A DNA stretch of 64,000 bases from assembly GCA_951406725.2 (NCBI GenBank), contig OX597814.1, forward strand, positions 55,862,001-55,926,000, given 5' to 3'. The position numbers were made by a program, and so were the translations under genes. This document shows positions 584 through 60,422 of this stretch, in pieces. This DNA is from Octopus vulgaris (lineage: Eukaryota). How positions within the stretch are numbered: the first letter of the stretch is position 1; each line of letters opens with the position of its first letter. Below the pieces are notes generated by a model, which was not told the origin of the DNA, searched no databases, and worked only from the letters and a program-made list of their open reading frames with translations.

Positions 584-647
<64 letters not shown>

Positions 648-664
648 CTATATATATATATATA

Positions 665-2158
665 TACTGAATTACAAAAGAAACATCACACTGTAAAAGA
701 TTATTTGTTTCACACATGATATTGAGATTATATATATTTTATCACATTTCTTGGTAATTTGACATCAGAAAGATGTCACTGACCCACAGTACCACTCTCT
801 TTTGAAAATACAAGGATTGCATGTAGGGTTCAAACTCGCCCACTTTTCATGAACATGGTAATGCTTGTGAATGTATCTTTATGAAAAACATCATGCACAT
901 GCACCCAAATTTACCAGCCTGTCATTCGTTTCCCAAATGCAGCAAGCATGCCAAGACTGACACGAAATCAGAGGGAGCGAGCCATTGAACATCTCCATGC
1001 TGGTCAATGTCCGTGGGTCATTGCTAATGATTTGAATTGCAATATTCAGACAGTTGAGTGGCTGAGGGAATGATACAATACCACAAACAGCATGGATGAT
1101 CATCCATGCAGTGACCAACCGAGGGTTACAATGGTATGTCAAGATCGCCACCAGCACCGGCAGCACTTGCAGGACTGATTCTGGAGGGCAACGGCATCAG
1201 CTAGGTAGACCATAGGGTCTCACCACAGACCCATTTGTGCAGAGACAGTTCACCGCCATCTGAGATATTTCAATTTGTCTTGTCAATGTTCAGCTATGGG
1301 TCCCACCCTCGCAGATCGTCGTTGATGGGCATGTCTGTAGTGGCCTCAAAAACGTCAGAACTGGTGATATCAGCAGTGGAGGACTGTAGTCTTCTCTGAC
1401 GAAAGTTGATATTGCATTTCTGTGGCAGATGGCAGAGCTAGGGTTTGGAGAAGAAGAGGTGAACGTCATGCTGATGGCTGTGGTGGAGAGACTCATGGGG
1501 AGGACAGAGCATCATGGTATGGGGCAGGATTGCACTCAACCAGAAACTTGGGACTGGTGGTCTTCTAAAACATTGACCAAGGCCAGGGCAATGGAGTAAC
1601 TGCTGCTTGCTGCATTGATCAAGTGTCATATTTTGCTCGTCATCAGAATCATGTGTTCCAATATGACAATGCCCATGCCCATACTGCCAGGTTGACAATA
1701 GACTTCCTCCAACAGCACAACATCCAGACACTGCCATGGCCTGCCCTAAGACCGGACTTGAACCCCATAGAGCACCTATGGGATGAAATTCAAATAAAGC
1801 TAAATGACATCTGCCCAAGGCTGACAACTGCAGCACAACTCACTGCAAGTTTTAAAAGTGTGTGGGCTGCTGGCACCATGGCCTTCATCAGTTGTTTGGT
1901 GCATTCAATGTACAGGAGATGCCTGGAGATAATCAACACTAATGGTGGTTACATGAGATATTGAGTTCATCTTTTTGGATCCAGGACACTCCATCATCAC
2001 ATGATACCATGTGACATCAAACATGATTCAGGAAATGATATTTTATAATTAGGAAAGAACGGTTTCTTAATTAGCACTCTTCAACCAATGCTAGCGCAGT
2101 CTGTAAATAAACCGGTTTCTATTTAGTATGTGCGTGATATTTCTTTTGTGGTTCAGTT
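665..2158 (+). mobile_element. Tc1-family DNA transposon (DD34E), full length, decayed
   Basis: Imperfect TIRs CTGAATTACAAAAGAAACATCAC (667-) and GTGATATTTCTTTTGTGGTTCAG (-2156), flanked by TA runs; internal transposase remnants. Confidence 0.9.
948..1964 (+). pseudogene. Tc1 transposase pseudogene, DD34E
   Basis: Starts MPRLTRNQRERAIEHLHAG (HTH-like). FSDES at ~1398, FQYDNAHAHT...PDLNPIEHLW with 34 residues between D and E. In-frame stops and frameshifts. Confidence 0.9.
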
Positions 2159-2479
2159 TATATATACATATACATGTATATATGTATATATATATATGTG
2201 TGTGTTTGTGCTTGTGTGTGTGTTTGTGCTTGTGTGTGTATGTGTGTGTGTGTGTATTTGTTTTTCATCCCCACAGTTGCTTAACAACTGGTGTTGGATT
2301 GCTTGCTTCTCTATATCTAAGTTGCTTGGCATAGGAAACCAATACATTAAGCAGCTGGCTTTAAAATAAATACTGGGTTGATTTGTTAAAAAAAAGTTCT
2401 TTAAGGCTGTGCCCCAGCATGGTTGCAGTCCAGTGACTGAAATGAGTAAAAGATAAGATAAATGAACATCTATTCTCAT

Positions 2480-2622
2480 GTTCTCTTATCTCTACCTACC
2501 AAATTCACTCACAAGGCTTTGGTTAGACCAGGGTTATAGTAAAAGACACTTGCCCAAGATGCTATGCAGTAGGACTGAACCCACAACCATGTGGCTAGAA
2601 AACAAACTTCCCACCACACAAT
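2480..2622 (-). mobile_element. SINE family A head fragment
   Basis: Reverse complement of the family A head (gacacttgcccaag...ggactgaacccacaaccatgtgg). Confidence 0.75.
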
Positions 2623-2779
2623 GACAAAAAAATTTTTTCACTCAAAATACAGATTTAATGTCAAGCAAGGTGACTAATAGATTAGAATTTTTTAATTGTT
2701 ATAATAATTACTGTAGCTTTCAATTCTCTCTAGAAAATGACATGTTAATCATTGTTATTCATTGATATTGTCCAGATGT

Positions 2780-2994
2780 AAGATAGTGGGTTGGCAAAAT
2801 GGTTAGCATGCTGTGCAAACTGCTTAGCAGTATTTCATCCATCTTTTTGTTCTGAGTTCAAATTCCACTGAAGTTGACTATGCTTTTCATTCTTTCAGGC
2901 TTGATCAAATAAATACCAGTTGAGCACTGGGGTCAATGTAGTTGACTTAACCCCTCCCCCAAATTTACTGGCCTTGTGACTAAATCTGAGACCA
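2780..2994 (+). mobile_element. tRNA-derived SINE family B (Nin/Deu-domain-like)
   Basis: B-box-like gagttcaaattcc, then gcttttcattctttcaggcttgatcaaataaataccag (Deu/Nin-like core). Candidate TSD atattgtcc on both sides. Confidence 0.8.
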
Positions 2995-4164
2995 ATATTG
3001 TCCTTGTATCTTTATGTTGGTATGAGTTGGGTAGTTCTGTAATACATTATCCTGCTGTGTGCTTCAGTGCTGTGAATTATTAGTTATTTTAGATTAGTGG
3101 TTAGGAACCATTTCAGTACTAGGGTCAAATTAGAAGCGACATGTCCTAAGTGCTGCACAGTGGAACTGAACCCAGAACCATATGGTTGTGAAACAAACCT
3201 TAATCATAAAACCATTGGTATGGCATTACTATTTCAGTCTCTGAGATTAGGCATTGTTTTTTCTTTAATGGGTTTTTAAATACTTTGTTAACAGAGAGCT
3301 TCAAATCTGAACATAGATAAAATATTGTCTACAGGTGAGGAGTTGCTTACGCTTGATATGGATTGCTGTCCATGTGAAGTATTAGTCTATAGAGGTCACT
3401 CTTTCGATATGCCATTCATTTAATCTTTGCAAGGATAAAAGGAGTGAGATGTATGAAAAATTTCTTCAGCTGACTTCTGCACTTTAAAGTATAAAATAAC
3501 CCAGTTATAAGGACTTTATTATAATTCATTGTTGAGGAAAACATCTGTGAAACATTTATGTTATTAGTTATAATATTAATAGAATTTTATTATAGATTCA
3601 GATAAAAAAAAAATAACTGAAAATAATGAGATTATTTAATTTGTACAAACATAGCTAAGAATTAATATGTTTATTAAAATTGATTCCCTTGACTATAACA
3701 TTGGCAATTTAGCATTTAACTCACAAGAATTAAGCTTTATTATCTGTTTAAAATGTGGAGTAAACAATTCTGCTTGAAACATAATATAGTGTTAACTTTG
3801 ATATTGAAATAAAATTAACTTCACAATATATTATACATGTCGTTAAATATAATTCTAGCATATTCTAAGTAAAGCAAAAAAGACCCTTTAATAATATCAT
3901 TTTTTTTCTATTGAAAACATATTTCTCTGAATGAATAGATAGACTAGATTAATGTATCACCAATCTGATAAGTTTCTGAGAATTGTGTATTATGAGAAGT
4001 TCTTTAATATTTGTATCTGTAGACCATCTTTGAAATGCCTTTTTTTTACTGACTCTCATTTATAAACATGGTGAACTACCAGATTATGAAGAACAAAATT
4101 GATCTTAGCTGATTTTAAACTTAGAAGACTCAGAACAAATACTACAAAGTATTTTGTCATCCCA

Positions 4165-4315
4165 CCACAAACTCCATTCCTTGTTGCAGTGTGATGACTT
4201 GTGTCCTCAGTGACTTTGAGAGCGATGCCAACAGAGCATAAGCTCTTGGTAGGGTTGCCTATGATGGACAGGTCAAAGGATAGAGACCAGTCTAATATTG
4301 GCCACCTCTTTCCAG
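4165..4315 (+). mobile_element. RTE-clade LINE 5' UTR-like fragment
   Basis: ccttgttgcagtgtgatgacttgtgtcctcagtgactttgagagcgatgcc...ggtagggttgcctatgatggacaggtcaaagg resembles BovB/Expander-type leaders. A related copy is at ~43385-43470. Confidence 0.5.
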
Positions 4316-5224
4316 AGGTAAAAATGAATTTGCATAGGATGTACACTCCTACCTAGGAAAATGCAAGGTTATGGAAAGTCAATGACAATTCAAAATCAAC
4401 AAGACATGAGAAAAGGCCTTAAGAAACAGGTTATAGTTGAGAACAGTGGAGAAAAGTTGTTGATGGCTTATAGGGAATGAAAGGCTTAATAAAAATATTG
4501 GTTTTCTCAACACTTTCATTATTCTGTCAAAAAAAAAAACTCCATGGGAAAATAACATAAATAGATCAGTGGTTCATATCCTGTATATTGCTTTCTGTTG
4601 TTAGAAAACCGAAGTAGTTAATTATTTGTATCCCAGCTGCAAATAGACATATATCGGACTACATTTCAATGCTCTTTGCAATGAGAAATACAATTCTATT
4701 GAGCTGCCATAAGCTTTATGTAGTTCTGGCTTCAGTTCCTCCCATAGTAGGCAACAAGGTAATGGCTTTCTATCTTAAATCCCTACATGAAGTTATATAT
4801 TTCATTGATGCCTAGTAACCCAATGTGTTTGGAGATATCACTTTTCTTCATTTTCTTTTCATTTCATTAGAATATGGTTGAAAGTGATTTTGCCTTTCAC
4901 TGATGTCAATAAAATAAATATTGTTAATATGCAGGGGCTGATTTAAGGAGTTGTATACCCTCCTCTTTGTTCCAAAGTGAGAATTAATTATTTCACTAAT
5001 AACAGTAATGATAATTTCTTAGATCAGGCTAGAAGTTATATTGACCAAGGTACTTGAATGGCATTTTACTTTATTGATCCTGGGAGGATGAAAGGTAAAG
5101 TTGACCTTGGCATGATTTAACTTTAGAATATAAAGAGCCAGAATAAATACAAGGCATTTTATCAACACTTTAACAATTTAGGAAAATACTCTAAACAGAT
5201 TGATAAGCCAGAATGAAACACCGG

Positions 5225-5295
5225 CCAGCAGGAAATTAAAGATAATATTAGAAGGGCTTATAATTGCAGCTCAAGTTCAATGCTCCCATGCTTGC
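5225..5295 (+). mobile_element. R4/Dong-like LINE ORF fragment
   Basis: Translates EGLIIAAQVQ, matching the EGxIIAAQDQ motif of this LINE group; only a short remnant. Confidence 0.45.
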
Positions 5296-5871
5296 TGCTA
5301 TTAAAAAAAAACAAAAAGATAAAAAAAGCCCCTGAAAATCCACTCCTCAAAAAAATAAATAAGAAATTCAAAGGGATTATATCAAGTATGTGGTGAATTT
5401 GATGAAACAATTGATTACATATGCACATAATTTTCTGTATTATCCATCTGTAAATTGATGTTTGAGGGGAAAACATGAACAGAAGAGAATATAAGAGGAC
5501 TAGGATTGGCAAAAAAGCTATTAGGAGTAGAAATTGCAGAATGAGACGTAATAAAGACGATAAGAAAGAAGAGATGAAGCATCATGTGAATTTGTATATG
5601 TGTGGATTGTTTGTATATATACACATAGCTTAGGACTAGCCAATGATCACTGTAAGAGTTGAAGAAGCAGACAGAAAAATGCATGTCTAAGATCTAATAG
5701 GAAATATATGTTAGCAACTGAACCTTTGCCAGATTCCTGTGGCTACCAGACTAGTTTACTGGTACCTTGCACAATACAGTATTAAATAAACTTGTATCAT
5801 TTATATTAATGTGCAGGTACCTGTATTTCATTTAATTATTTAAATTAATTTAATATTTGTTTAATTTAGAG

Positions 5872-6207
5872 CAGTAGTTCTCAACAATTTTTTATCAAAG
5901 GACCCGTTTAATTACTATTTTATGCTGGTGAACCCCCATGGCTATTCGATATTTAAAAAACTAGTCTTATAGATATTTCTTTTGAAATCCCTATTTAGTT
6001 TTTCACACAGTCTCTTGCATAATTTAGCAAGAAAATGCTGAAGTATGTTAAGCATTAGAGAAAGAAACTTGGCTGTTTCTAGCAATAAATACATCTGATG
6101 CAAAATTTTTCATGGACCCTTAATATAATACTGTTGATCCCCAAAAATACTATTTTGCTTTCATGAACCCCCAGAAATCTTATATGGACTCTTGTTGAGA
6201 ACCACTG
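5872..6207. mobile_element. hAT (Charlie-like) MITE
   Basis: TIRs CAGTAGTTCTCAAC / GTTGAGAACCACTG; 8-bp TSD ATTTAGAG (5864-5871) vs ATTTAGTG (6208-6215); no ORF. Confidence 0.85.
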
Positions 6208-6289
6208 ATTTAGTGTACTGACCATAGTTACCTCCCTTGATTTGGAAAGCCCAATGCTGTACATGTATGTTGAAACATATTATCACTAA

Positions 6290-6301
6290 GATATATATAT
6301 A

Positions 6302-6372
<71 letters not shown>
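6290..6372. repeat. (TA)n microsatellite
   Basis: Long near-perfect TA run. Confidence 0.98.
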
Positions 6373-6374
<2 letters not shown>

Positions 6375-6589
6375 TTAGAGGTTGAGCTCTGTCTTTAAAG
6401 ATCTCAAGAGATTAATTAGAGTTTTGTCTTTAGAGATTTATTATGTTCTATGATTAGAGACTGGTCTCTTTGTATTGTCTTATTCTACAATACTAGCAAT
6501 AAATCTGTTGATTTCTCTATTGGGCTTCCTTTAATTATAGTTGTAGCTCAAGATAAAACAGTTCTCTTTCTTTCATTCTAGAATTATTA

Positions 6590-10752: not shown

Positions 10753-12061
10753 GACTATTTTTATCTGACTTTTCATCATTTCTGTCATCCATTGGCCCGC
10801 TGTATTTTATTCAAATGAAAAACACAATAGCTCCGACAGTTTTCAAACTTAGAATGTTGAAGCACGAAATTAAATATTTCATAATGCTTATCTCTATTTT
10901 TGTTGTTCTTCATCTAATTGTATTCATCAAGTTTGCAAAGTCAAATATTGGTGAACTTGTTCCTTTATTCTCATGGCATAGCTTAATACTTCATCAATGT
11001 GATTTGGTACAATTCCAAGATGTTGGAAGTTACATATCAATATATTTCCGCAGAGAGACATTATGTAGTTATTTGTGTAACTGAGTTAACACCTTACAAA
11101 TCTATATGATTATTTAATAGAGTCTTCATCCTACTTTCGTTTTCTTCATTTTTTTTTTTACACAATTAAAAATGTTTCACACATGAAAATGTACTCTCAC
11201 GACGAACTGAAACATTCACTTAACATACTATACACAGACATACATACATATACACAGAAGCATGCACTTAGTAACGTACATATAGACTCATAAAAATAAA
11301 CACCTGGAATGATGCAATCACATATTCACACAAATACATATAGAAATGCACACATACACATGTAAGTATAGAAATATACATACTTTGTATGTATATTTCT
11401 ATATACATACAAGTGCATATGCATCAAACTTAAAGACATATATTCACACACTGAACCACAATCCTAGAAATACACACATTTTTTAAAAAATGCATACATG
11501 AAGCAAACACATACCAATGTATGTGTGTGTGTGCTGAAATATACACAGAAAAATTTGTGTACAGAAAGACAAACACATAAATACAACTAAACAAGAATTC
11601 AGTCATACATATGCACACAAATGTTACTAATTTGATTTTAAATAAACCAGTGATATTTAGAGTAAAAATATGGCCATCCATGACTATAACTGTATAAATT
11701 TAAAATGGTAAATATGTTTTCCAAAATAAAATTGTATTTTTTGTAAGTGGAAATTTCCAGTGCTGGTTAAAACTTTGAGTCATCTTTTCTTTTTATTGGG
11801 TGGGGAGAGTAAACTTCTGGAAATATTTAGAAGAAATTATTGTGAAACAAAGGAAAATGAAGACATTAACTCCATACATTTTATATCCTTTCATATTTTC
11901 CTGTTGGTATATATTTAAGCACTTCTACGTCTGTCGAAAATTTTTGTGTAGGTTCATCTCTTTCTCTTTCCCCCTCTCTCATAAAAACACACACACACAC
12001 GGAGGCACAGATGTGTGCTCACACACACACGCATACATTACACACACACACATATATATTC

Positions 12062-12101
<40 letters not shown>

Positions 12102-12784
12102 CACACACATACGTATGTTCATACATACATACATAATACACAGATACATGCATTCATACATATATATATATATATATAAATACTGATAAGATCTAGCAAG
12201 ATTTAAAAATAGCCATTGTTTTTACACTGGTTTAAAGACCAGATCCACCCCTAGTGAAATGTCATTAATTTTCCAAAAACCTGAGTTGGCTGATATTAAT
12301 TGAATTATCTCTGTTGCTTGCTATTTTAAAATCTGTTAAATACCTGAGGGAGTTTTTGTCTTCTCATTGCAAGGAAAGTATCAGCAAGAACTGATATTTT
12401 TCTTAACTGATATTTTCCTTGCAATGATACTTTTCAACTCCCTTTATTACATATGGGAGATTTACCATCTATATTTACATACACATCATGCAGAATGCTT
12501 CCCCAAGGTATTTTCTTTCAGCTCTATACTGCTTTCAGTGTTCTTTTTGCATCTCATCTAAGGTTAGAAATTTGACTCCAGAGTGTTTGTGCTAAAACAT
12601 TGAAGCAGTTTATAAATACAAAACGGTCATACATTTCGTATCACAGAATTTACACTTTACATTAGCTGTGTATTGAGTCATTTATAGAACAGTGGCCTTT
12701 TTGATTATCCCATTGAGAATTATGCAGAATATATAGATACATTATGACAGCCACCAGTGAACTAAGGCAGCTTTGTATACAATG

Positions 12785-13751: not shown

Positions 13752-14149
13752 TATTGTAGTATTTTGGGGTGGTTATTGTTTTTTTTTTTTGCTTTTTTTT
13801 TTGCCAAATAAACACACGCACTATATAGTCGTACTTCACCCATTTATTACTATTCTTATTTTAACTCGTATCCATTGTCCAGAAATCTTTTGTCACACAT
13901 CTGTGACCTCTTCAGCAACACTTTTCATCCTCATGTGTGCTCCTGCTCTGCTTAGTCCATTCTCTAAGCAAAGCAGGAGCACACATGAGGACAGAAAGTG
14001 TCACTGAAGAAGTCACAGATGTGTGACAAAAGATTTCCAGACAATGAGTTACAATAAGAACAGTAATAAATGGGTAAAGCACCACTATATAGTGCGTGTG
14101 TTTATTTGGCAGAAAAAAAAAAAAAAGACCACCCCGAAATACAACAATA
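13752..14149. repeat. ~400-bp foldback palindrome, each arm with a hammerhead-like motif
   Basis: Arms of ~200 bp meet at cttag-tccattct-ctaag (8-nt loop 13956-13963). CTGAAGA-stem II-AAAA-GATT-TC occurs at 14004-14037 (+) and 13882-13915 (-). Confidence 0.92.
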
Positions 14150-15869: not shown

Positions 15870-17127
15870 CAGAGGTTGGACAAAATAATGGAAACACCTA
15901 GCATCATAAGTTTGAAATAGCTATAAAACCATCAAAAGCTTGTTAATTTTAATGTTTTTTTTATTTATTACTAGTGTTGCTTAATATGTTTTGCTACAAT
16001 TGCTTTTCTTTTCAGATATCACCAGAAAAAGGTAATTCAAATTCATTAAAATGACAGATCTGTCAGACTTTCAAAGAGGTCAAATTGTTGGTGCTCGTAT
16101 GGCAGGTGCTAGCGTAATGAAAATAGCCAAAATGTTTGGTGTATCAAGAAGTACTGTCTTGAAAATAATGACAGCCTTTGAAAAAGAGGGAAAAACCTCA
16201 TCATTGAAACAAAACTTTTGAAGAAAACCAAAACTTTCAGATGGGGACCATCGAACTCTTACGCAAATTGTTAGAAAGAATCACAAAAGTACAGTTCACA
16301 AAATTACTGCAGAGCTTAATGACCTCCTCAAGAACCCAGTTTCCACAAAAACTGTTTGCCGGGAGCTGCACAAAGCTAGATTTCATGGGAGGGCTGCAAT
16401 CAGAAAACCACTACTTTCAAAAACAAACGTTGCAAAGTGTTTAGAGTGGAGTAAAAACCTACAGAATTGGTCCCTAGCACGGTGGAAGAATGTTAATTTC
16501 TTGGACGAGTCATCCTTTACCCTATTTCCGACTATCAGCTGAGTATACGTGTACAGACAATCAAAAGACGCATTTGACCCAGACTGCCTTCTTCCAACTG
16601 TTAAACATGGAGGATCTGTGACGATCTGGGGGGGGCTATATCTTGGAAATCCGGCGGCCCAATGGTTTCCCTTCATGGTAGAATTAATAGTCAAGTCTAT
16701 TTAAGCATTTTATCTGATCAAATTCATCCTATGGTTGCGGAACTGTTTCTGGAGGGAAATGCAATCCTTCAGGATGATAATGTACCGATTCACACAGCTA
16801 AAGTTGCTACTGAATGGCACGAGGAACATTTTAGTGGCGTTGATCATCTTATCTGGCCACCACAGCCCCCTGATCTCAATATTATTGAACATTTATGGTG
16901 CATTTTAGAAAAACAAGTAAGGAGTTATCCTCCATCATCACTACAAGAACTAGAGACTGTTTTAGCTGAAGAATGGACAAAAATTCCTTTGGAAACAATT
17001 CAAACTTTGTATGAGTCCATACCTCATAGAATTCAAGCTGTAATTACTGCCAAAGGTGGTCCTACCCCATATTCAAATAAATTTATTTGAAATTTTAATG
17101 TGTTTCCATTATTTTGTCCAACCCCTG
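15870..17127 (+). mobile_element. Tc1-like DNA transposon, DD36E (Incomer-type), full length 1258 bp
   Basis: 28-bp TIRs CAGAGGTTGGACAAAATAATGGAAACAC / CAGGGGTTGGACAAAATAATGGAAACAC (1 mismatch); TA TSD at 15868-9 and 17128-9. Confidence 0.95.
16051..17090 (+). pseudogene. DD36E transposase pseudogene
   Basis: MTDLSDFQRGQIVGARMAGAS...FLDES...QDDNVPIHT...PDLNIIEHLW with 36 residues between D and E. TGA stops at 16219 and 16540; frameshift in the G run near 16630. Confidence 0.93.
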
Positions 17128-20864: not shown

Positions 20865-22151
20865 CAGGGTGCAATGATTAAATTGTTGCCATTTTATATG
20901 TTTAATTTCGTGCATGTGCATTGTTTGTTTTTGATTTTGTTGACTACATAGTATAGTAGGGTCAGTTGGGCCCTGCCTGTGAGAAAAACAGCACCATGAT
21001 GCAATTCACTCTCCCAGAAATTTGGAAACAATGTGTTGTACTGCTTTGCATTTGCACTGGAAGCTCCAATGCAAACATTACAGAGTGTTTGGGTGTCAAT
21101 CTGAGGACAGTGCAGAGAATTCAGAAAGAGTTGGATGAGTCTAATGGTGACTATGAAAGTACGGCAGCTCAGAAAACTCACTCTGATCATTCTAATTAAG
21201 AAAAGAACTTCTGAATTTGTTGGTGAGATCCAAACCATGATTGACAATGAGCCCTCGAAGTCAATCAGATCCATTTCCAGGGACATGGGATTGTCTGACT
21301 TTCTTATCAGGCAGATAGTTCAGGAAGACATTCAATATTCCTCGTACAAGATGAGAAAGGGTCAATTTTTATCCCAAGCCATTAAGGACATAAAGAAAGA
21401 CCATACTACAAAGCTTTTGAACAAACTCAAGCATCACCTCCAACAAAACATGCTTTGGTTTTTCTCAGACGAGAAAAATTTCTGCCAGGATCAGATGGTG
21501 AACACACAGAACAACCGTTGGCTTGCCATGTCCCCAAAACATGTACCAAAAGTGATAAAAATCAAACATCCAGTCAATATCTTAGTGTTTGGAGTAATCA
21601 CTAATGATAGTGATGTTATGTCTCCATTCATCTTCCCATGTGGCCTCAGACTCAACACAGAGGCCTACATCAAGTACCTGGAGGAGGTAGTGCTGCCCTG
21701 GGTCAAGAGGGTGGCTGCTGGAAGACCCTATGTCTGGCAACAGGACTCTGTACCATGCCACACAAGTAGGAGAACCCAGCCATGGCTGTCAGATAATTTC
21801 TGTAACCACATTACCCCTAACATCTGGCCACCTAACTCCCTAGACTGCAACCTTCTTGATTATTATGTGTGGGGTGCAATTGAGCAAGAGACCAACAAAA
21901 CTCCTTGTAATACCAAAGATGAACTGAAGGCAAGAGTTATGGTAGCATTCACCAACTTAAACAAGGAGACTGTCCAGAAGAGTTGCAGGAGATTCTGAAG
22001 TCATCTGGAGGCTGTGGTTCAAGTCATGGGGATTTTATTGAATAAATTTACTCTTTAGTATTTAATTTTGGTAAATATATCTATTAAAATGAAATGTCAG
22101 TGTTATTTTCATTTTTGTGTAATTCGATGACAATTTATTCACCACAACTTG
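20865..22151 (+). mobile_element. maT-family (DD37D) DNA transposon, full length, decayed
   Basis: Degenerate TIRs CAGGGTGCAATGATTAAATTGT / CAAGTTGTGGTGAATAAATTGT (rc) inside TA-rich flanks; transposase inside. Confidence 0.9.
20996..22045 (+). pseudogene. DD37D transposase pseudogene
   Basis: HTH-like start (LGVNLRTVQRI), frameshift near 21195, then FSDEK...QQDSVPCHT...WPPNSLDCNLLDYYVW with 37 residues between D and D. Premature TGA at 21996. Confidence 0.92.
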
Positions 22152-24179: not shown

Positions 24180-24605
24180 AGTCAGGGAGCTACTGGATAG
24201 CAATGATACAAAGGAAAAGGGCCGTGAAGACAGGATTGGGGAGTGAGAGCTAGGCATAGTGTATGAAGGAGGAAATGTGAGAAAGAGAAGAGATGTGGAG
24301 ATGTAGTTTGGTTTGTTAGTGAAGGGTAAGGGAAAAGTTTCCTTGTTACGTGTGGGTGGAACACACAGGTCAGGGCTAGCAAATAGCAATAATACAGTGA
24401 GATAAGGCATGTGGGTAGAACACACAGGTCTGGGGCAAATGGAGAGCAATGATACAGTGGCACAGGGCCAAGAGGACAGGATTGAGGAGTGGGAGGTAAG
24501 CATAGTGCATGAAGTGGAAATGTGAGGAAGAGATGTAGTTTGGTTTGTTGTGGTAGAGTGTGTGAGAAGTTTTCTTGTTAAGTGTGGGCGAGACACACAG
24601 GACTT
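24180..24605. repeat. Degenerate purine-rich direct repeats
   Basis: agcaatgataca...acaggattg...gcatagtg...gagatgtagtttggtttgtt...acacacagg occurs at ~24180-24370 and ~24430-24605, with a short unit between. Confidence 0.8.
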
Positions 24606-24639
24606 CTAGAACTCAGTTTCACTGATGTGGATGGATTTT

Positions 24640-24687
<48 letters not shown>

Positions 24688-24696
24688 CAAAGTACA

Positions 24697-25022
24697 ATAT
24701 TGATAATAAGGAGAGTGAAGAATTTAAACGTTTAAACTTTATGTTTATTTCCAGTTAATTTTATTCATAATAATTGTCTGACACATGTTTTGATCACATT
24801 AACTGCATATTCTTGCATATTTATATGCAGTGATTTATGCATTATTACTTATATACCCTGAAAAGATTGTGCTAATAATACATAAATCGCTGCATATAGA
24901 TATGCAAACAATATGCAGTTAGTGTGATTGAAGCACGTGTCGGACAATTATTATGAATAAACTAACTGGAAGTAAACATAAAGTTTGAATGTTCAAATTC
25001 TTCACTCTCCTTTTATCAATAT
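24697..25022. repeat. ~325-bp foldback palindrome containing a hammerhead-like motif
   Basis: Arms 24697-24847 and 24873-25022 are reverse complements; 25-nt spacer contains CTGAAAA. Confidence 0.92.
24856..24943 (+). ncRNA. Decayed type I hammerhead-like motif with long stem II
   Basis: CC-CTGAAAA-GATTGTGCTAA...TTAGTGTGATT-GAAGC-ACGT-GTC-GG. The 11-bp stem II base pairs fully with G-U wobbles; core changes G8A and A15.1G. Confidence 0.6.
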
Positions 25023-25024
25023 CT

Positions 25025-25148
25025 AAAAAGAGAAAATAAGGATATACTACCTGATGTTACATGCTATCCCTCTGAAAACCTGTTGGTTGAAAGGTTTTCA
25101 GAGAGATAGCATGTAACATCAATTGGTATGTCCTTATTTTCTCTTTTT
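25025..25148. repeat. ~125-bp hairpin palindrome
   Basis: aaaaagagaaaataagga...ctgaaaacct / aggttttcag...tccttattttctcttttt with 10-nt loop. Confidence 0.92.
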
Positions 25149-25180
25149 CTCTTTTCTTTTCTTTTCTTTTTCTTTATTTT

Positions 25181-25302
25181 TCTGCTCTGATGAAGTTCCA
25201 CTAATTAAGTTGGTATAATTATTAACAGTGATAACTATTATTATTGTAATAATTAAGCCTGATTATGCCCAAAATAGCACAAACAGAAACAGTTGTTAGA
25301 TG
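25181..25302 (+). ncRNA. Type I hammerhead-like motif with ~90-nt AU-rich stem II
   Basis: CTGATGA (25187-93), internal hairpin taattattaacagtgataa/ttattattgtaataatta, GAAAC-AGTT-GTT (25286-97); stem I only 2 bp. Confidence 0.5.
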
Positions 25303-25382
25303 AGATATTGCCTTTTTCTGTAATCAATAAATAATAATTGATGTTTATCAGTTATCAGTTTTATTTCCATTTTCTTATTTTT

Positions 25383-25435
<53 letters not shown>

Positions 25436-26159
25436 AATTTCAGTCAAATTAATGCAAGTAGCTTTTTATTTTTTAAGTCTGGCACTTATTCTATCAATCT
25501 CTTTTGTTGAACTGCCTAGTTATGGGGACGTAAACACAGCAACATCAGTTGTCAAGCAATGGTAGTGGGGACAAACATGGACAGAAAGATACACACACAG
25601 ATAAATATATACATGTAAATATAATATGACAGGCTTCTTTCAGTTTCTGTCTACCAAATCCACTCACAAGTGGCATTGAATCTGGAACCATGTGATTGAG
25701 GTGTGTATGCATACAAATATGCACATACATACATATATAAATACATGCATACATACTTACCTACCAACCTACGTACCTACATACAAAAATACATACATAC
25801 ATACATACATACATACATACATACATACATACATACATACATACTTACATATCTAGCTGGCATTAGGAAAGACATTCAGGCATTGAAACCATACAGAGCA
25901 GACAGTAGAACTTGGTACAGTCCTCTGGTTTGTCAGCTCCTGTCAAACTACTCAACATATGGCAGCATGGAAAATAGATATTAAATAATTATGATTATGG
26001 TGATGAAGATGATGATGATGATGATGATGATGATATATAAGTGTCTTCAACTATAATCCCGAGCCATAGTGGAAGACAACACTTGCTCAAAGGGCCACAC
26101 AGGGGACTGAACCGCAAATCATGTCCCTGGAAAGCAAACTTCTTAATCACACGGTCATG

Positions 26160-54450: not shown

Positions 54451-56699
54451 AACACAAATATATATATACACATACACAAAACACATCCATGTGCTAATAT
54501 ACTCTCTCGCTCTCTCACACACACACTCTCTTTCTCTCTCCCCTCCTCTCACACACATAAACAGTTTCGAGGGGTAACCAATAAGTCGGTTAGTTGCCAG
54601 CTGTCTTATACGATGGTGACATTGAACATTTCCCAAGAAATACTGCTGTTTGCGTGATAACTTGATATACCATACTTCCTAAAGCACGAACACCAAGAGT
54701 TAATTTTGACTATCAACTGAAATTGGTTTCTTTGCAAATAGTTATAGCTTCTTTTTGAAATGTGTGTATGTCATGAACCTACCCATTTTTTTACTTATGT
54801 AAAAAAGAAAAAAAAACTTGTTAAAGCGTAATTCGAAATTATGTAGTTGACAACATATACGGGTGTGCCCATATAGTTGCACAAACCCCATAATTGCAGT
54901 CACTAACTAGGCCAACCTGCTAGATTGAGGAAGCAAAACCATCTTCGAATAAAACAAACATAAGCCACCAGTAGTTATATACAACACACACATACACATA
55001 TTGGATCAGGGCTGACCAGAGGCAAAACTGCGACAACAAACTCCTTGTCATGTTTTAATTTCTGTGGAGGATATCTGCTTTATACACGGGACTGGACTAG
55101 TTAGTAGATTGTGGTCAGACCTTCTTTAGTGCATATTAGTTCTTGCTAAAACTGAGGCGAATACCAACCACCGCGATCATCGTCATATAACACAAGCGGG
55201 TCTCAGTTTGCATTCTTACCATTTAAGTTTGAAGTTTTCTTTTCTGATGTAACCTGCTTTAACCATACCTACCTACTCATTTGATATATTCTAGCCGTAT
55301 CTTAATGCCCTCCATAATTCGTGTTTATTGTTGTTGAAGAAACTATGCATGTGTTTATTGTGAGCGTGTCTGATTTTGTGTACATATGTTGGCTCTGTTG
55401 TTAAACCCCCAAGTCAGTCGCATCACAAAAGACCTACTAGACTTGATCATCCCCTTCATTTTTCAAATGTTATATACCAAAGATCATATTGTGTAATGTG
55501 CTCCTTTTTTAAAAAAATTCAGAACGTAATTTGATAGCTATTTAGCTGGGATTTCTAATAGACGGTTCGTTGGCTTGTTGCTGTGCAAAAATGTTTATTC
55601 AGTTTTCATTTATAGCTGTCATTCTTTCTTAATCAGACTTAATTTTATAACTGTCATTCTTTCTTAATCAAATTTCCTGTTGCATAAAATCATTATCATC
55701 AGCTTGTTATTACCTTCGTAATTTAAAAGAAAAATTAATCACCTAAGTCAATTAATTACTTAGAATTGGATCTGGGAGAAGTTTAATTTCCCTTGTTTTC
55801 ATTTATTTTTATATCTATAACTTGAATCTACTTAAATATTATTAGTCATTAAAAGCATGAACCCTACCATGATTTCAGTTTTCTGATGCGCTAAATCCGA
55901 GGTCTATCAATAAGAAACTATTTTTCTTTCCCTTTTAATCTTTTTTACTTTCCACAACTTTATCGCCACCTTCTACTTTTTTGCTTACATTTTTTTTAGC
56001 AAATTGCTCCATAAGGTCAGTTTCGATAAAACAGATGTGTTACAATCAAAGCCATTCCATCCTTGACACCGTCTTTTTTTCTCAGACATTGCATCAAACA
56101 CTACATTATCTAGAGTGCTCTTTTTAAGATGTTAGATGTTGAGGGAAATTTGGCTGCTATTTCTGGAAGGTCGATCGATCGAACATGTAGAAGCTCTTTC
56201 ATTAGTTCGTTTTACAGTCATTTAGCAGAATTAGCAGTCAACAACTTAAGTGTTTCATTCTTTCAGTATAGGTGAAATAAATGTCATTAATGTAGGTAGA
56301 TTGAGAAGGTTGCCATTCTTTTCTAATTCCTGAATCTGGTATGTTCAGACCTAGGATATCAGAAATTGAATCGTTAAATATCTGATTGTTGATGAAATCC
56401 TAGAATCAACATTTGTCCCACATAAAAATAAAAAAAAATCAACAAAATCTTAACGCTCAGTCTTGATTTATTCTTGAATATAATATTAGCTCATCATAAC
56501 CATTATTGTCATCTATACCACCAAAATGGATGTGGTACAAATTTTGCAGCTTTTCACAATAGCTGTGACTAATGCCAAAGAGTGTTAAAGAATGCCAAGA
56601 CTTGCTTTATTGAAGATGTTCAAATGAGGATTGAGCAAGAAGAAGCTTGGTTCATGTGAATTTTGGGGAATAGCCAGTAAGATACATAATCATGTATCT

Positions 56700-56970
56700 T
56701 ACTGGCTATTCAAACAAATCAACCCCAGGAATTTTTTTTTAAGCCTGATTCTTATTCCATTGGGCTCTTTGGCTAAGTTATGGGGACATAAGCACATCAA
56801 CACCAGTTATACAATGGACTTCTTTTCAGTTTCTGTCTACCAAACTCACTCACAAGGCTTTGATTAGCCCGGGGCTATAGTAAAAGACATTTGCCCAAGG
56901 TGCCACGCAGTGGGACTGAACCCACAATCATGTGGGTGGGAAGCAAAATTCTTACCATACAGCCATGTCT
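56700..56970 (-). mobile_element. SINE family A
   Basis: Tail and head motifs on the minus strand. Confidence 0.8.
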
Positions 56971-58891: not shown

Positions 58892-58978
58892 GCATTACTA
58901 ATAACCAGTTTTTAGAACTTATACATATGCTTTAGAATAAAACTTTAGGTGAGTAGAGAATGTAATGTAAATTAATGA

Positions 58979-59143
58979 ATGACAAGGGAGCTGGAATTGT
59001 GTAATCAATTTGATTAGCTTACAGCTGTTTCTGCTATAAGAAGCAGTGTACTCAAAGCTGAGTTGGAGCCATTAATGGCTCTTACAGCTGAAAAAGCTGT
59101 AAACTAATGCAGTTGATTACAATAATTCCTGTTCTTTTGTCAT
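58979..59143. repeat. ~165-bp imperfect foldback with hammerhead 3' halves
   Basis: atgacaa...gtaatcaa...ttacagctgtttc and gaaaaagctgtaa...ttgattac...ttgtcat are inverted; GAAAC-AGCT-GTA on minus at 59020-59031. Confidence 0.8.
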
Positions 59144-60422
59144 CCAATAATATATATTCACATATGCACAAAAGTATGTTTAGATATCATTTTGTTTTAA
59201 AAGATACAATGTTAAGTTATGGTAATTTTAATATACTTGTAAGGGTGATGTTTGTCAGAATTTTTAGGGTATCAAACAAAATGTGCTGCAGTATTTAGCT
59301 ATATTGCTTTACATTCTGAGTTCCAATCCTGCTGAATTCAGCTTGGCATTTTGTTCAGTAAAATAATTACTAATAAAGTAACAAAGTAGATATAATTGAC
59401 TGTACTACCTTTCACAGTATGGTCAGTTTAGATAGCCAAAGCCTTACACTCACAGTGTCATTTTCATATTTTAGCATAAATCCTCCCAAAATGTTTTTTG
59501 TACTTCATTAGTCCTAGGTGGAGAATTAACAGATCTTATAAGATGTGCATAATCCTTAAATCAAAATTCTGAAATCCAAAACCTTCCAAAATTCAAATGT
59601 TTTTTTTTTTTAAATTAGAAAGGTACCTCTGTTTGAAAATTCAGTAAATGATTAGACAGTTCCTAGGTGATGTATAACTATTGCAGACCATTTATCTAGC
59701 CATAAGCTGTTAGGAGTGATGTTACCCGTCCTGGGTTGTGCTTGCCTAACCTATTAAGTTGCCACCAGTTTATTTTTAGAGGATATTGGATATGTGGTTA
59801 AGAAGTTCATTTTTCAATTTCAGCTGTGTGGTTTCTTGTTCGATCTCACTATACAACATCTTGGATACATGTCTTCTACTATTGCTCTAGGATGACCAAT
59901 GCTTTGTGAGTGGAATTAGTGGACAGAAACTGTACTGAAGCCCATTATGTGTGTGTGTGCATATGTGCACTTATGTTGACATTCTATGGCTTTGTCACTA
60001 TCTGAGTAGAAAGATGATATGATGTTTATATTCTTGTTACATTATGGCCAGTCACTCTGTACTTTCAAAGACCAGAGGAATAAAACATCCCTTACTTGAA
60101 AAATGGATGAGATTTCGAAACAAGGAAGGCATATTGTCTAAAATAACTCCTCATTCAACCTGCACTAACATTGAGTAATGCATATTAAATGAAGTAATGT
60201 ATGAAGCTTTTATAGCAACACCATCATGCATATCAGAAAGTCCTGTAGATATTACTAAGGTAAAAGTGAAAAAAAAAATGTAGAAGCATTTGTGTTTATT
60301 GATACCACAAAAAGTCGAGTTGTTGGGAAACTTCACAATGGTATAGTATGAAACTGGGAGTGTTGGAACTATGACTAGATAGAATCTTAAAACATGGGAC
60401 AACAAACTGGTTCTATGATTAA

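Follow-up and report, generated by a model that had tools for sequence, protein, structure and literature searches.

Two abutting, decayed copies of hammerhead-bearing repeat families with a long stem II in Octopus vulgaris, probably Penelope-type insertions

The inspection of a 64,000-nt stretch of Octopus vulgaris DNA (hereafter, the window; 29–42% GC, zero N, microsatellite-rich) raised the question of how two inverted repeats came to lie side by side with hammerhead ribozyme motifs, and whether the ribozyme had any part in the inversions. A sequence-only reading had described three abutting structures, two foldbacks and a hammerhead with a long stem II, and had proposed that the inversions arose by fold-back template switching at that stem during reverse transcription. 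A better explanation is that two high-copy families, each with a type I hammerhead whose stem II is long, have left one decayed copy apiece here, side by side. We consider it probable that these families are the non-coding 3′ ends of Penelope-type elements (PLEs), or retrozymes riding on them, each copy likely consisting of two 5′-truncated cDNAs joined head to head.

The anatomy could be read directly (Table 1). The palindrome at 24697–25022 (foldback 1) was confirmed, its arms being 90% identical in an ungapped alignment (133 of 148 aligned positions) and differing by 14 transitions and one transversion; its fold had a z-score of -35, and none of 100 shuffles was as stable. The hairpin at 25025–25148 (hairpin 2) was likewise recovered, with 57-nt arms that are 91% identical (52/57) and a z-score of -16 (0 of 200 shuffles as stable). 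The CTGATGA at 25187, the segment GAAACAGTTGTT ending at 25297, and the CTGAAAA at both 24858 and 25072 were all found as described. The stretch had been said to be bounded by (GA)n and (TA)n; both microsatellites are indeed present, but the left boundary lies 11–15 nt further out (24682/6). The inverted arm of foldback 1 stops within the 5′ strand of stem II, at family position 24873; of the ribozyme it contains only the 3′ half. The direct arm starts at 24846–24849, with a possible 2-nt TA microhomology at 24846–24847, and the spacer runs without a break into the right arm. Just left of the locus, positions 24181–24601 contain a diverged direct duplication with a period of about 245 nt (75%).

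Table 1. Features of the stretch between the two flanking microsatellites (window positions).
Feature	Position	Strand	Remarks and evidence
(GA)22 microsatellite, left target flank	24642..24685	.	last AGAG also fits the family-1 tail
Family-1 3′ tail remnant, 11–15 nt, left arm only	24682..24696	-	contig loose ends
Element 1 inverted arm, 5′-truncated family-1 copy	24697..24847	-	arm alignment, fold, contigs
Element 1 direct arm (spacer plus right arm)	24846..25022	+	ends at the family's likely short end
Type I hammerhead 1, decayed	24858..24941	+	motif scan, fold, family letters
Element 2 inverted arm, 57 nt, stops at pyrimidine tract	25025..25081	-	
Element 2 direct copy: hairpin loop, right arm, pyrimidine tract, hammerhead 3, 3′ part	25082..25385	+	contigs
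Element 2 pyrimidine tract	25137..25183		within the direct copy
Type I hammerhead 3, decayed	25187..25297	+	CTGATGA, GAAAC, loop AGTT (family AGCT), GTT triplet
(TA)24 microsatellite, right target flank	25386..25433	.	

Public contigs were aligned at 80% likeness, in four runs on 24687–25385 (477–602 pieces aligned per run) and in a single run on 24846–25385 (490 pieces). The matches listed for the four runs comprised 15 of 65 joints, 12 of 21 rows with letters between the joined pieces, 24 of 647 loose ends and 40 of 226 variants; those for the single run comprised 11 joints, 6 of 127 loose ends and 40 of 88 variants. The summed depth was tens to hundreds of times that of a contig identical to the locus, which marks a repeat and is no copy number. 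The related contigs form two high-copy families: foldback 1 belongs to family 1, and the right arm of hairpin 2 together with hammerhead 3 belongs to family 2. In both, depth climbs towards the 3′ end (from 588 to 6411 in family 1, and from about 100–240 to 450–960 in family 2), as expected from 5′ truncation. BLAST detected no further copy of either family in the 64-kb window. The two families as they stand could not be aligned, 442 of 500 shuffles scoring as well. With the family letters restored, the bases of the two stems II look alike by eye, each being a CGCG-rich helix (24865–24929 and 25195–25284).

The view of three separate structures fails because at least nine contig pieces from the four runs continue from the right arm of hairpin 2 into the third motif, extending from 25082–25115 to 25267–25385 (for example 25082–25267, 25089–25304 and 25115–25385); the arm and the motif are parts of one family-2 copy, and the locus holds two copies, one of each family. 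Since one of these pieces begins at 25082, the hairpin 2 loop also belongs to the direct copy. At least six more contigs join the end of the left arm (25023–25030) to 25205–25319 on the other strand; we take these for sense copies with a closer match to the left arm, their direction being deduced. The rest of the element 2 left arm was not found in the 6 kb to the left, where 3 of 30 shuffles gave matches as good.

A loose scan of the window found four pairs of hammerhead core strands, two of them at this locus, with core strands 65 and 92 nt apart. In hammerhead 1 the core strand (24858–24864) is decayed at G8 (G8>A), stem II (24865–24875/24919–24929) closes a 43-nt branched insert with a hairpin of its own, and the GAAGC at 24930–24934 (A15.1>G) is followed by the palindromic ACGT; the predicted cut falls after 24941. 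All 11 stem-II positions pair, a result reached in none of 40 shuffles of the window, with a descriptor that had been relaxed to fit this motif. Single-arm folds were no better than those of shuffled sequences (z-scores of -1.3 and -0.4). In the family letters, the core is intact: CTGAAGA, GAAAC and GTC are present in type I order. In each of the four runs the loose ends behind 24846/24847 had CTGAAGA-GATCG in antisense, the letter at 24933 was A in 74 contigs, and C was found at 24929 and 24925 in most of the depth. Given these family-1 majority letters, the CTGAAAA and GAAGC of the window represent private decay at G8 and A15.1, and the earlier suggestion that the stem had decayed at CpG sites agrees with the same majority letters. 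A15.1 is not known to vary. The window copy of hammerhead 1 is likely to be dead. G8C abolishes cleavage in PAc (PMC11167929). According to the predicted fold, a read-through transcript would bury the 3′ half of hammerhead 1 in a long hairpin.

The pairing of stem II holds for the family-1 hammerhead, and the long stem II is a trait of family 1 that is older than the inversion in foldback 1. Two variants, C at 24873 (28–33% of the loose ends listed) and G at 24921 (19–35% of the depth), would, if linked, fit a compensatory change from T-A to C-G. In other family-1 copies, the loose ends upstream of 24846 include a small, perfect hairpin that lies about 15 nt before the spacer.

In hammerhead 3, stem II (about 25195–25205/25273–25284) surrounds a long inner hairpin. 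Only 6 of the 11 stem-II positions pair, which shuffles reach about seven times per window; the window copy is at chance level, and the case for this hammerhead would come from the family letters. With the family-2 letters put in (25204T, 25279G, 25281G and 25293C), most of stem II is regained and the loop becomes the palindromic AGCT. The fold of the region had a z-score of -1.1 overall and of -3.1 for the stem II domain. Stem II is flanked by an A on either side in the window copy, and mismatches at this place occur in three of six Hydra rows from PMC8557442 File S2. Both ribozymes of the locus are predicted to be dead. Upstream of the family-2 ribozyme, a TTTTCAG (25095–25101) and a long pyrimidine tract (25137–25186) resemble the features of a splice acceptor; in the Penelope of Drosophila virilis, an intron ends at helix I.

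The two ends of foldback 1 are unequal. Family 1 has a tail of at least 37 nt beyond ATCAATAT, seen in the loose ends before 24689 (15–24 contigs per run, agreement 0.73–0.80), while the contigs behind 25012 agree up to ATCAATAT and then mix (agreement 0.53–0.64). This suggests that the family may have both a short and a long end, the short one being read from mixed 30-letter consensus lines. In the window, the right arm stops at the short end and the left arm keeps 11–15 nt of the tail. Two cDNAs started from two cut ends fit this better than a fold-back copy does, since the extra tail lies on the arm that lacks the spacer, in agreement with PAc: in vitro, PAc Poseidon cuts and extends both strands, with two reverse transcription start sites bounding the tail (PMC11167929), and two start sites plus extension of both strands would give unequal ends like those seen here. 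The unequal ends of foldback 1 favour double priming, as judged on this copy alone.

We infer the following route, in which the enzyme, the double priming and the order of events are all proposed. A Penelope endonuclease/reverse transcriptase would cut both strands within a microsatellite; each cut end would prime one cDNA, at one of the two start sites of the RNA (short end and tail end); and the two truncated cDNAs would be joined where each stops, often near the 3′ edge of the ribozyme and not, as a rule, in stem II. For element 2, our preferred guess is that priming by the (GA)n target took place internally, on the pyrimidine tract, and gave the short left arm, and that element 1 landed later at the join. 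About as possible is that a deletion removed the rest of that arm; loss of sequence at this junction might also explain why the right arm of foldback 1 has no tail. The missing remainder of the element 2 left arm, which needs an extra event, counts against this explanation.

The same elements might instead have acquired their second arm when the first cDNA, or an antisense RNA, folded back and primed itself at any microhomology, with one end trimmed later. Self-priming has been put forward for Penelope palindromes (PMC3846280, Discussion) and PMC8557442 explains the tail by endonuclease resolution, which suits self-priming with trimming; the 2-nt TA overlap in foldback 1 fits fold-back as well as it fits end joining, and the short left arm of hairpin 2 could be an unfinished copy. 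However, the left arm of foldback 1 would be the copy under self-priming, yet it holds family tail that the right arm lacks, which disfavours fold-back copying unless one end was trimmed, and the right arm stops at what is likely the family's short end. We regard self-priming as unlikely.

The sequence-only reading had gone further, placing the fold-back of the reverse transcriptase, and hence the centres of the inversions, at the long stem II. The tail on the left arm alone disfavours fold-back template switching there too, later trimming of one end being the way in which it could be reconciled, and the positions of the inversions point elsewhere. Among the three inversions in the window only one touches stem II, that of foldback 1, whose inverted arm ends in it. 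Hairpin 2 turns about 95–105 nt upstream of its ribozyme core, and the palindrome at 13752–14149 turns about 55 nt upstream of the core and inverts despite having a short stem II. Each arm of this palindrome (398 bp, head to head, lying in (TG)n/(CA)n) contains a complete hammerhead with a short stem (CTGAAGA, 6-bp stem II), and the left arm is seemingly about 55 nt longer than the right, in a tail-like manner. The parallel drawn between the two hairpins, on the grounds that the second also turns just after CTGAAAA, does not hold: this motif is in sense orientation and unpaired in foldback 1, and antisense and paired in hairpin 2, where it (25072–25078) is the antisense of the family TTTTCAG about 100 nt upstream of the ribozyme. 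With 17 CTGAAAA per 64 kb, one within 20 nt of a given centre has a chance of about 1%, for a motif that was chosen post hoc and is antisense there.

The junctions of other family copies were then mapped relative to the ribozyme, as had been proposed. Eleven family-1 junctions were read by hand from single contigs among the matches listed; the strand of seven of these rows was deduced from the letters between the joined pieces, and two rows had no direction. Two joints with unknown letters between (24746/24984 and 24846/24963) were left out, as were eight rows joining left and right arms on opposite strands (arm switching), four one-arm skips and the family-2 joins. Only one of the 11 has both ends in stem II: the junction 24811/24910, present in three runs and located in the loop of that stem. 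A further two have a single end in stem II, and the left-out row 24846/24963 may end in or before stem II. In total, 4 of the 22 ends fall in stem II versus 9.9 expected if uniform (P = 0.009, under a null that ignores the 3′ bias), and the ends are scattered over 24860–24986. On this evidence, together with the antisense CTGAAAA of hairpin 2, an origin of the inversions at stem II appears very unlikely.

Where the ends do gather is around the predicted cut site. Eight of the 22 ends lie within 24936–24948 (2.0 expected, P = 0.0004, for a range chosen post hoc); when only 24930–24990 was counted, 3.6 of 17 ends were expected at the cut site (P = 0.016). No depth step was found at the cut (3309 at 24941 and 3361 at 24942). 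With a uniform null, a post hoc range and no depth step, this excess of junction ends is a hint. Three of the eight ends lie 3–4 nt upstream of the cut, a position more in keeping with stalling at the 3′ edge of the ribozyme than with run-off from a cleaved RNA.

Could the structures be MITEs or foldback DNA transposons with a chance likeness to hammerheads? They do have long inverted arms; remnants of Tc1-type transposases lie in the window (16222–17090 and 1569–1964, with matches to HTH_Tnp_Tc3_2 and DDE_3); and no Rfam hammerhead is recognised here, the 64-kb window giving no match at the gathering threshold and the 43 sub-threshold matches in 24500–25500 being mostly microRNA hairpins. However, the fixed terminal inverted repeats and constant structure of such transposons are not seen: the ends are unequal, the centres vary among copies, and the family sequence continues past both arms and centre. 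Depth is biased towards the 3′ end, and once the family letters are put back, the core, stem II and the palindrome in the loop of stem III reappear. This origin is thus extremely unlikely, and the earlier view of the repeats as retro-inserted, hammerhead-bearing sequences with a long stem II held up. Other identities were considered and rejected. A microRNA reading was discarded, as was a permuted hammerhead, since both motifs have the standard order CTGA, GAAA and cut site. A metagenome scan for the long-stem-II core returned 16 loci (stems of 5–9 bp, GC content 0.44–0.69), none with GT(A/C/T) four letters after GAAAC, and these were taken as chance matches. Elsewhere in the window, 21105–21998 looks mariner-like by eye, with no Pfam match; 58960–59163 is an older foldback (73%) with three small central hairpins, one of them round CTGAAAAAG, in which no hammerhead was recognised; and short near-perfect hairpins occur at 56668–56711 (44 nt, 4-nt loop), 12364–12427 and 11351–11421.

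Least credible of all is an assembly or amplification artefact: palindromes beside microsatellites are prone to misassembly and no contig among the matches listed spans the whole stretch, but a library artefact is excluded by the decay of the arms (10% differences, nearly all transitions), and contigs from two studies, of which at most one can be the source of the assembly, match 24687–24842 and, across the junction of foldback and hairpin, 24983–25136 with zero differences.

The assignment to the Penelope class is argued from the insertion anatomy. PLE insertions have been described in which an inverted copy is 5′-truncated and one end bears a tail (PMC8557442, PMC3846280), and both 5′ truncation with an adjacent inverted copy and microsatellite flanks were found here. 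The locus is like the insertions of endonuclease-bearing PLEs with pLTRs (PMC8557442, PMC3846280) in its head-to-head arms, 5′ truncation, one-arm tail, microsatellite flanks and hammerhead near the 3′ end. It differs in that the inverted arm of element 2 falls short of the 3′ end, in that the families are known here without a linked open reading frame, and in the tail, which is 30–40 nt in those PLEs versus the 11–15 nt kept in one arm in the window. No target-site duplication could be read at the locus. Among the 47 open frames of at least 100 amino acids in the window, six of which were scanned with profiles, none was recognised as encoding a reverse transcriptase plus GIY-YIG. Three short family motifs were absent from the PMC8557442 supplement, where line breaks could hide a match.

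The ribozymes resemble the minimal hammerheads of metazoan PLEs (PMC4209133) in their type I order, short stem III with a palindromic loop, short stem I, G10.1-C11.1 pair (family 1), opposite-strand pairs and mostly solitary, decayed copies; in that study, paired minimal hammerheads on opposite strands lie 100–700 bp apart. The difference lies in helix II, of 7–8 bp in PMC4209133 versus about 11 bp here, closing structured inserts of 43 nt and about 67 nt. Loop 2 spans 4–9 nt in six Hydra rows of PMC8557442 File S2. With helices of 7–8 bp and small loops as the published norm, the long stem II is, as had been noted, atypical for minimal hammerheads. The families also share with the non-LTR retrozymes of animals (PMC7229834; bioRxiv 10.64898/2026.07.22.740005) a non-coding, high-copy nature, a type I hammerhead and a proposed dependence on Penelope; retrozymes consist of tandem units, each with a hammerhead, and form circular RNA. 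No tandem unit was found in the window, and the contig loose ends, of 30 letters, are too short to close one. In the open-access literature, bioRxiv supplements aside, we found no report of a 65–92-nt stem II in Penelope hammerheads, and nothing on the position of junctions relative to the ribozyme. The head-to-head, 5′-truncated layout of Penelope type is thus already known, and the long branched stem II is the only feature not found described.

The locus itself is ordinary decayed retroelement debris, two Penelope-type insertions side by side, and the interest that remains is in the long branched stem II and the weak clustering of junction ends around the cut site. The route by which Penelope elements insert head to head is debated in print between self-priming, endonuclease trimming and double priming. 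PAc inserts without the need of ribozyme cleavage, and no reads ending at the cut site were found in that study (PMC11167929). If the excess of junctions at the cut site were true genome-wide, it would be an indirect sign of ribozyme folding or cutting in vivo, a sign not seen in the PAc study. Hammerheads with a stem II of 65–92 nt would escape descriptors with short loops, and their counts may be underestimated. As a tentative proposal, which we consider unlikely, Octopus would have Penelope-mobilised hammerheads with a long branched stem II and a shared CGCG base helix, perhaps a protein-binding site, in two otherwise unalignable families; their cDNAs would stop preferentially at the cut site, and the junctions would record self-cleavage or folding in the animal.
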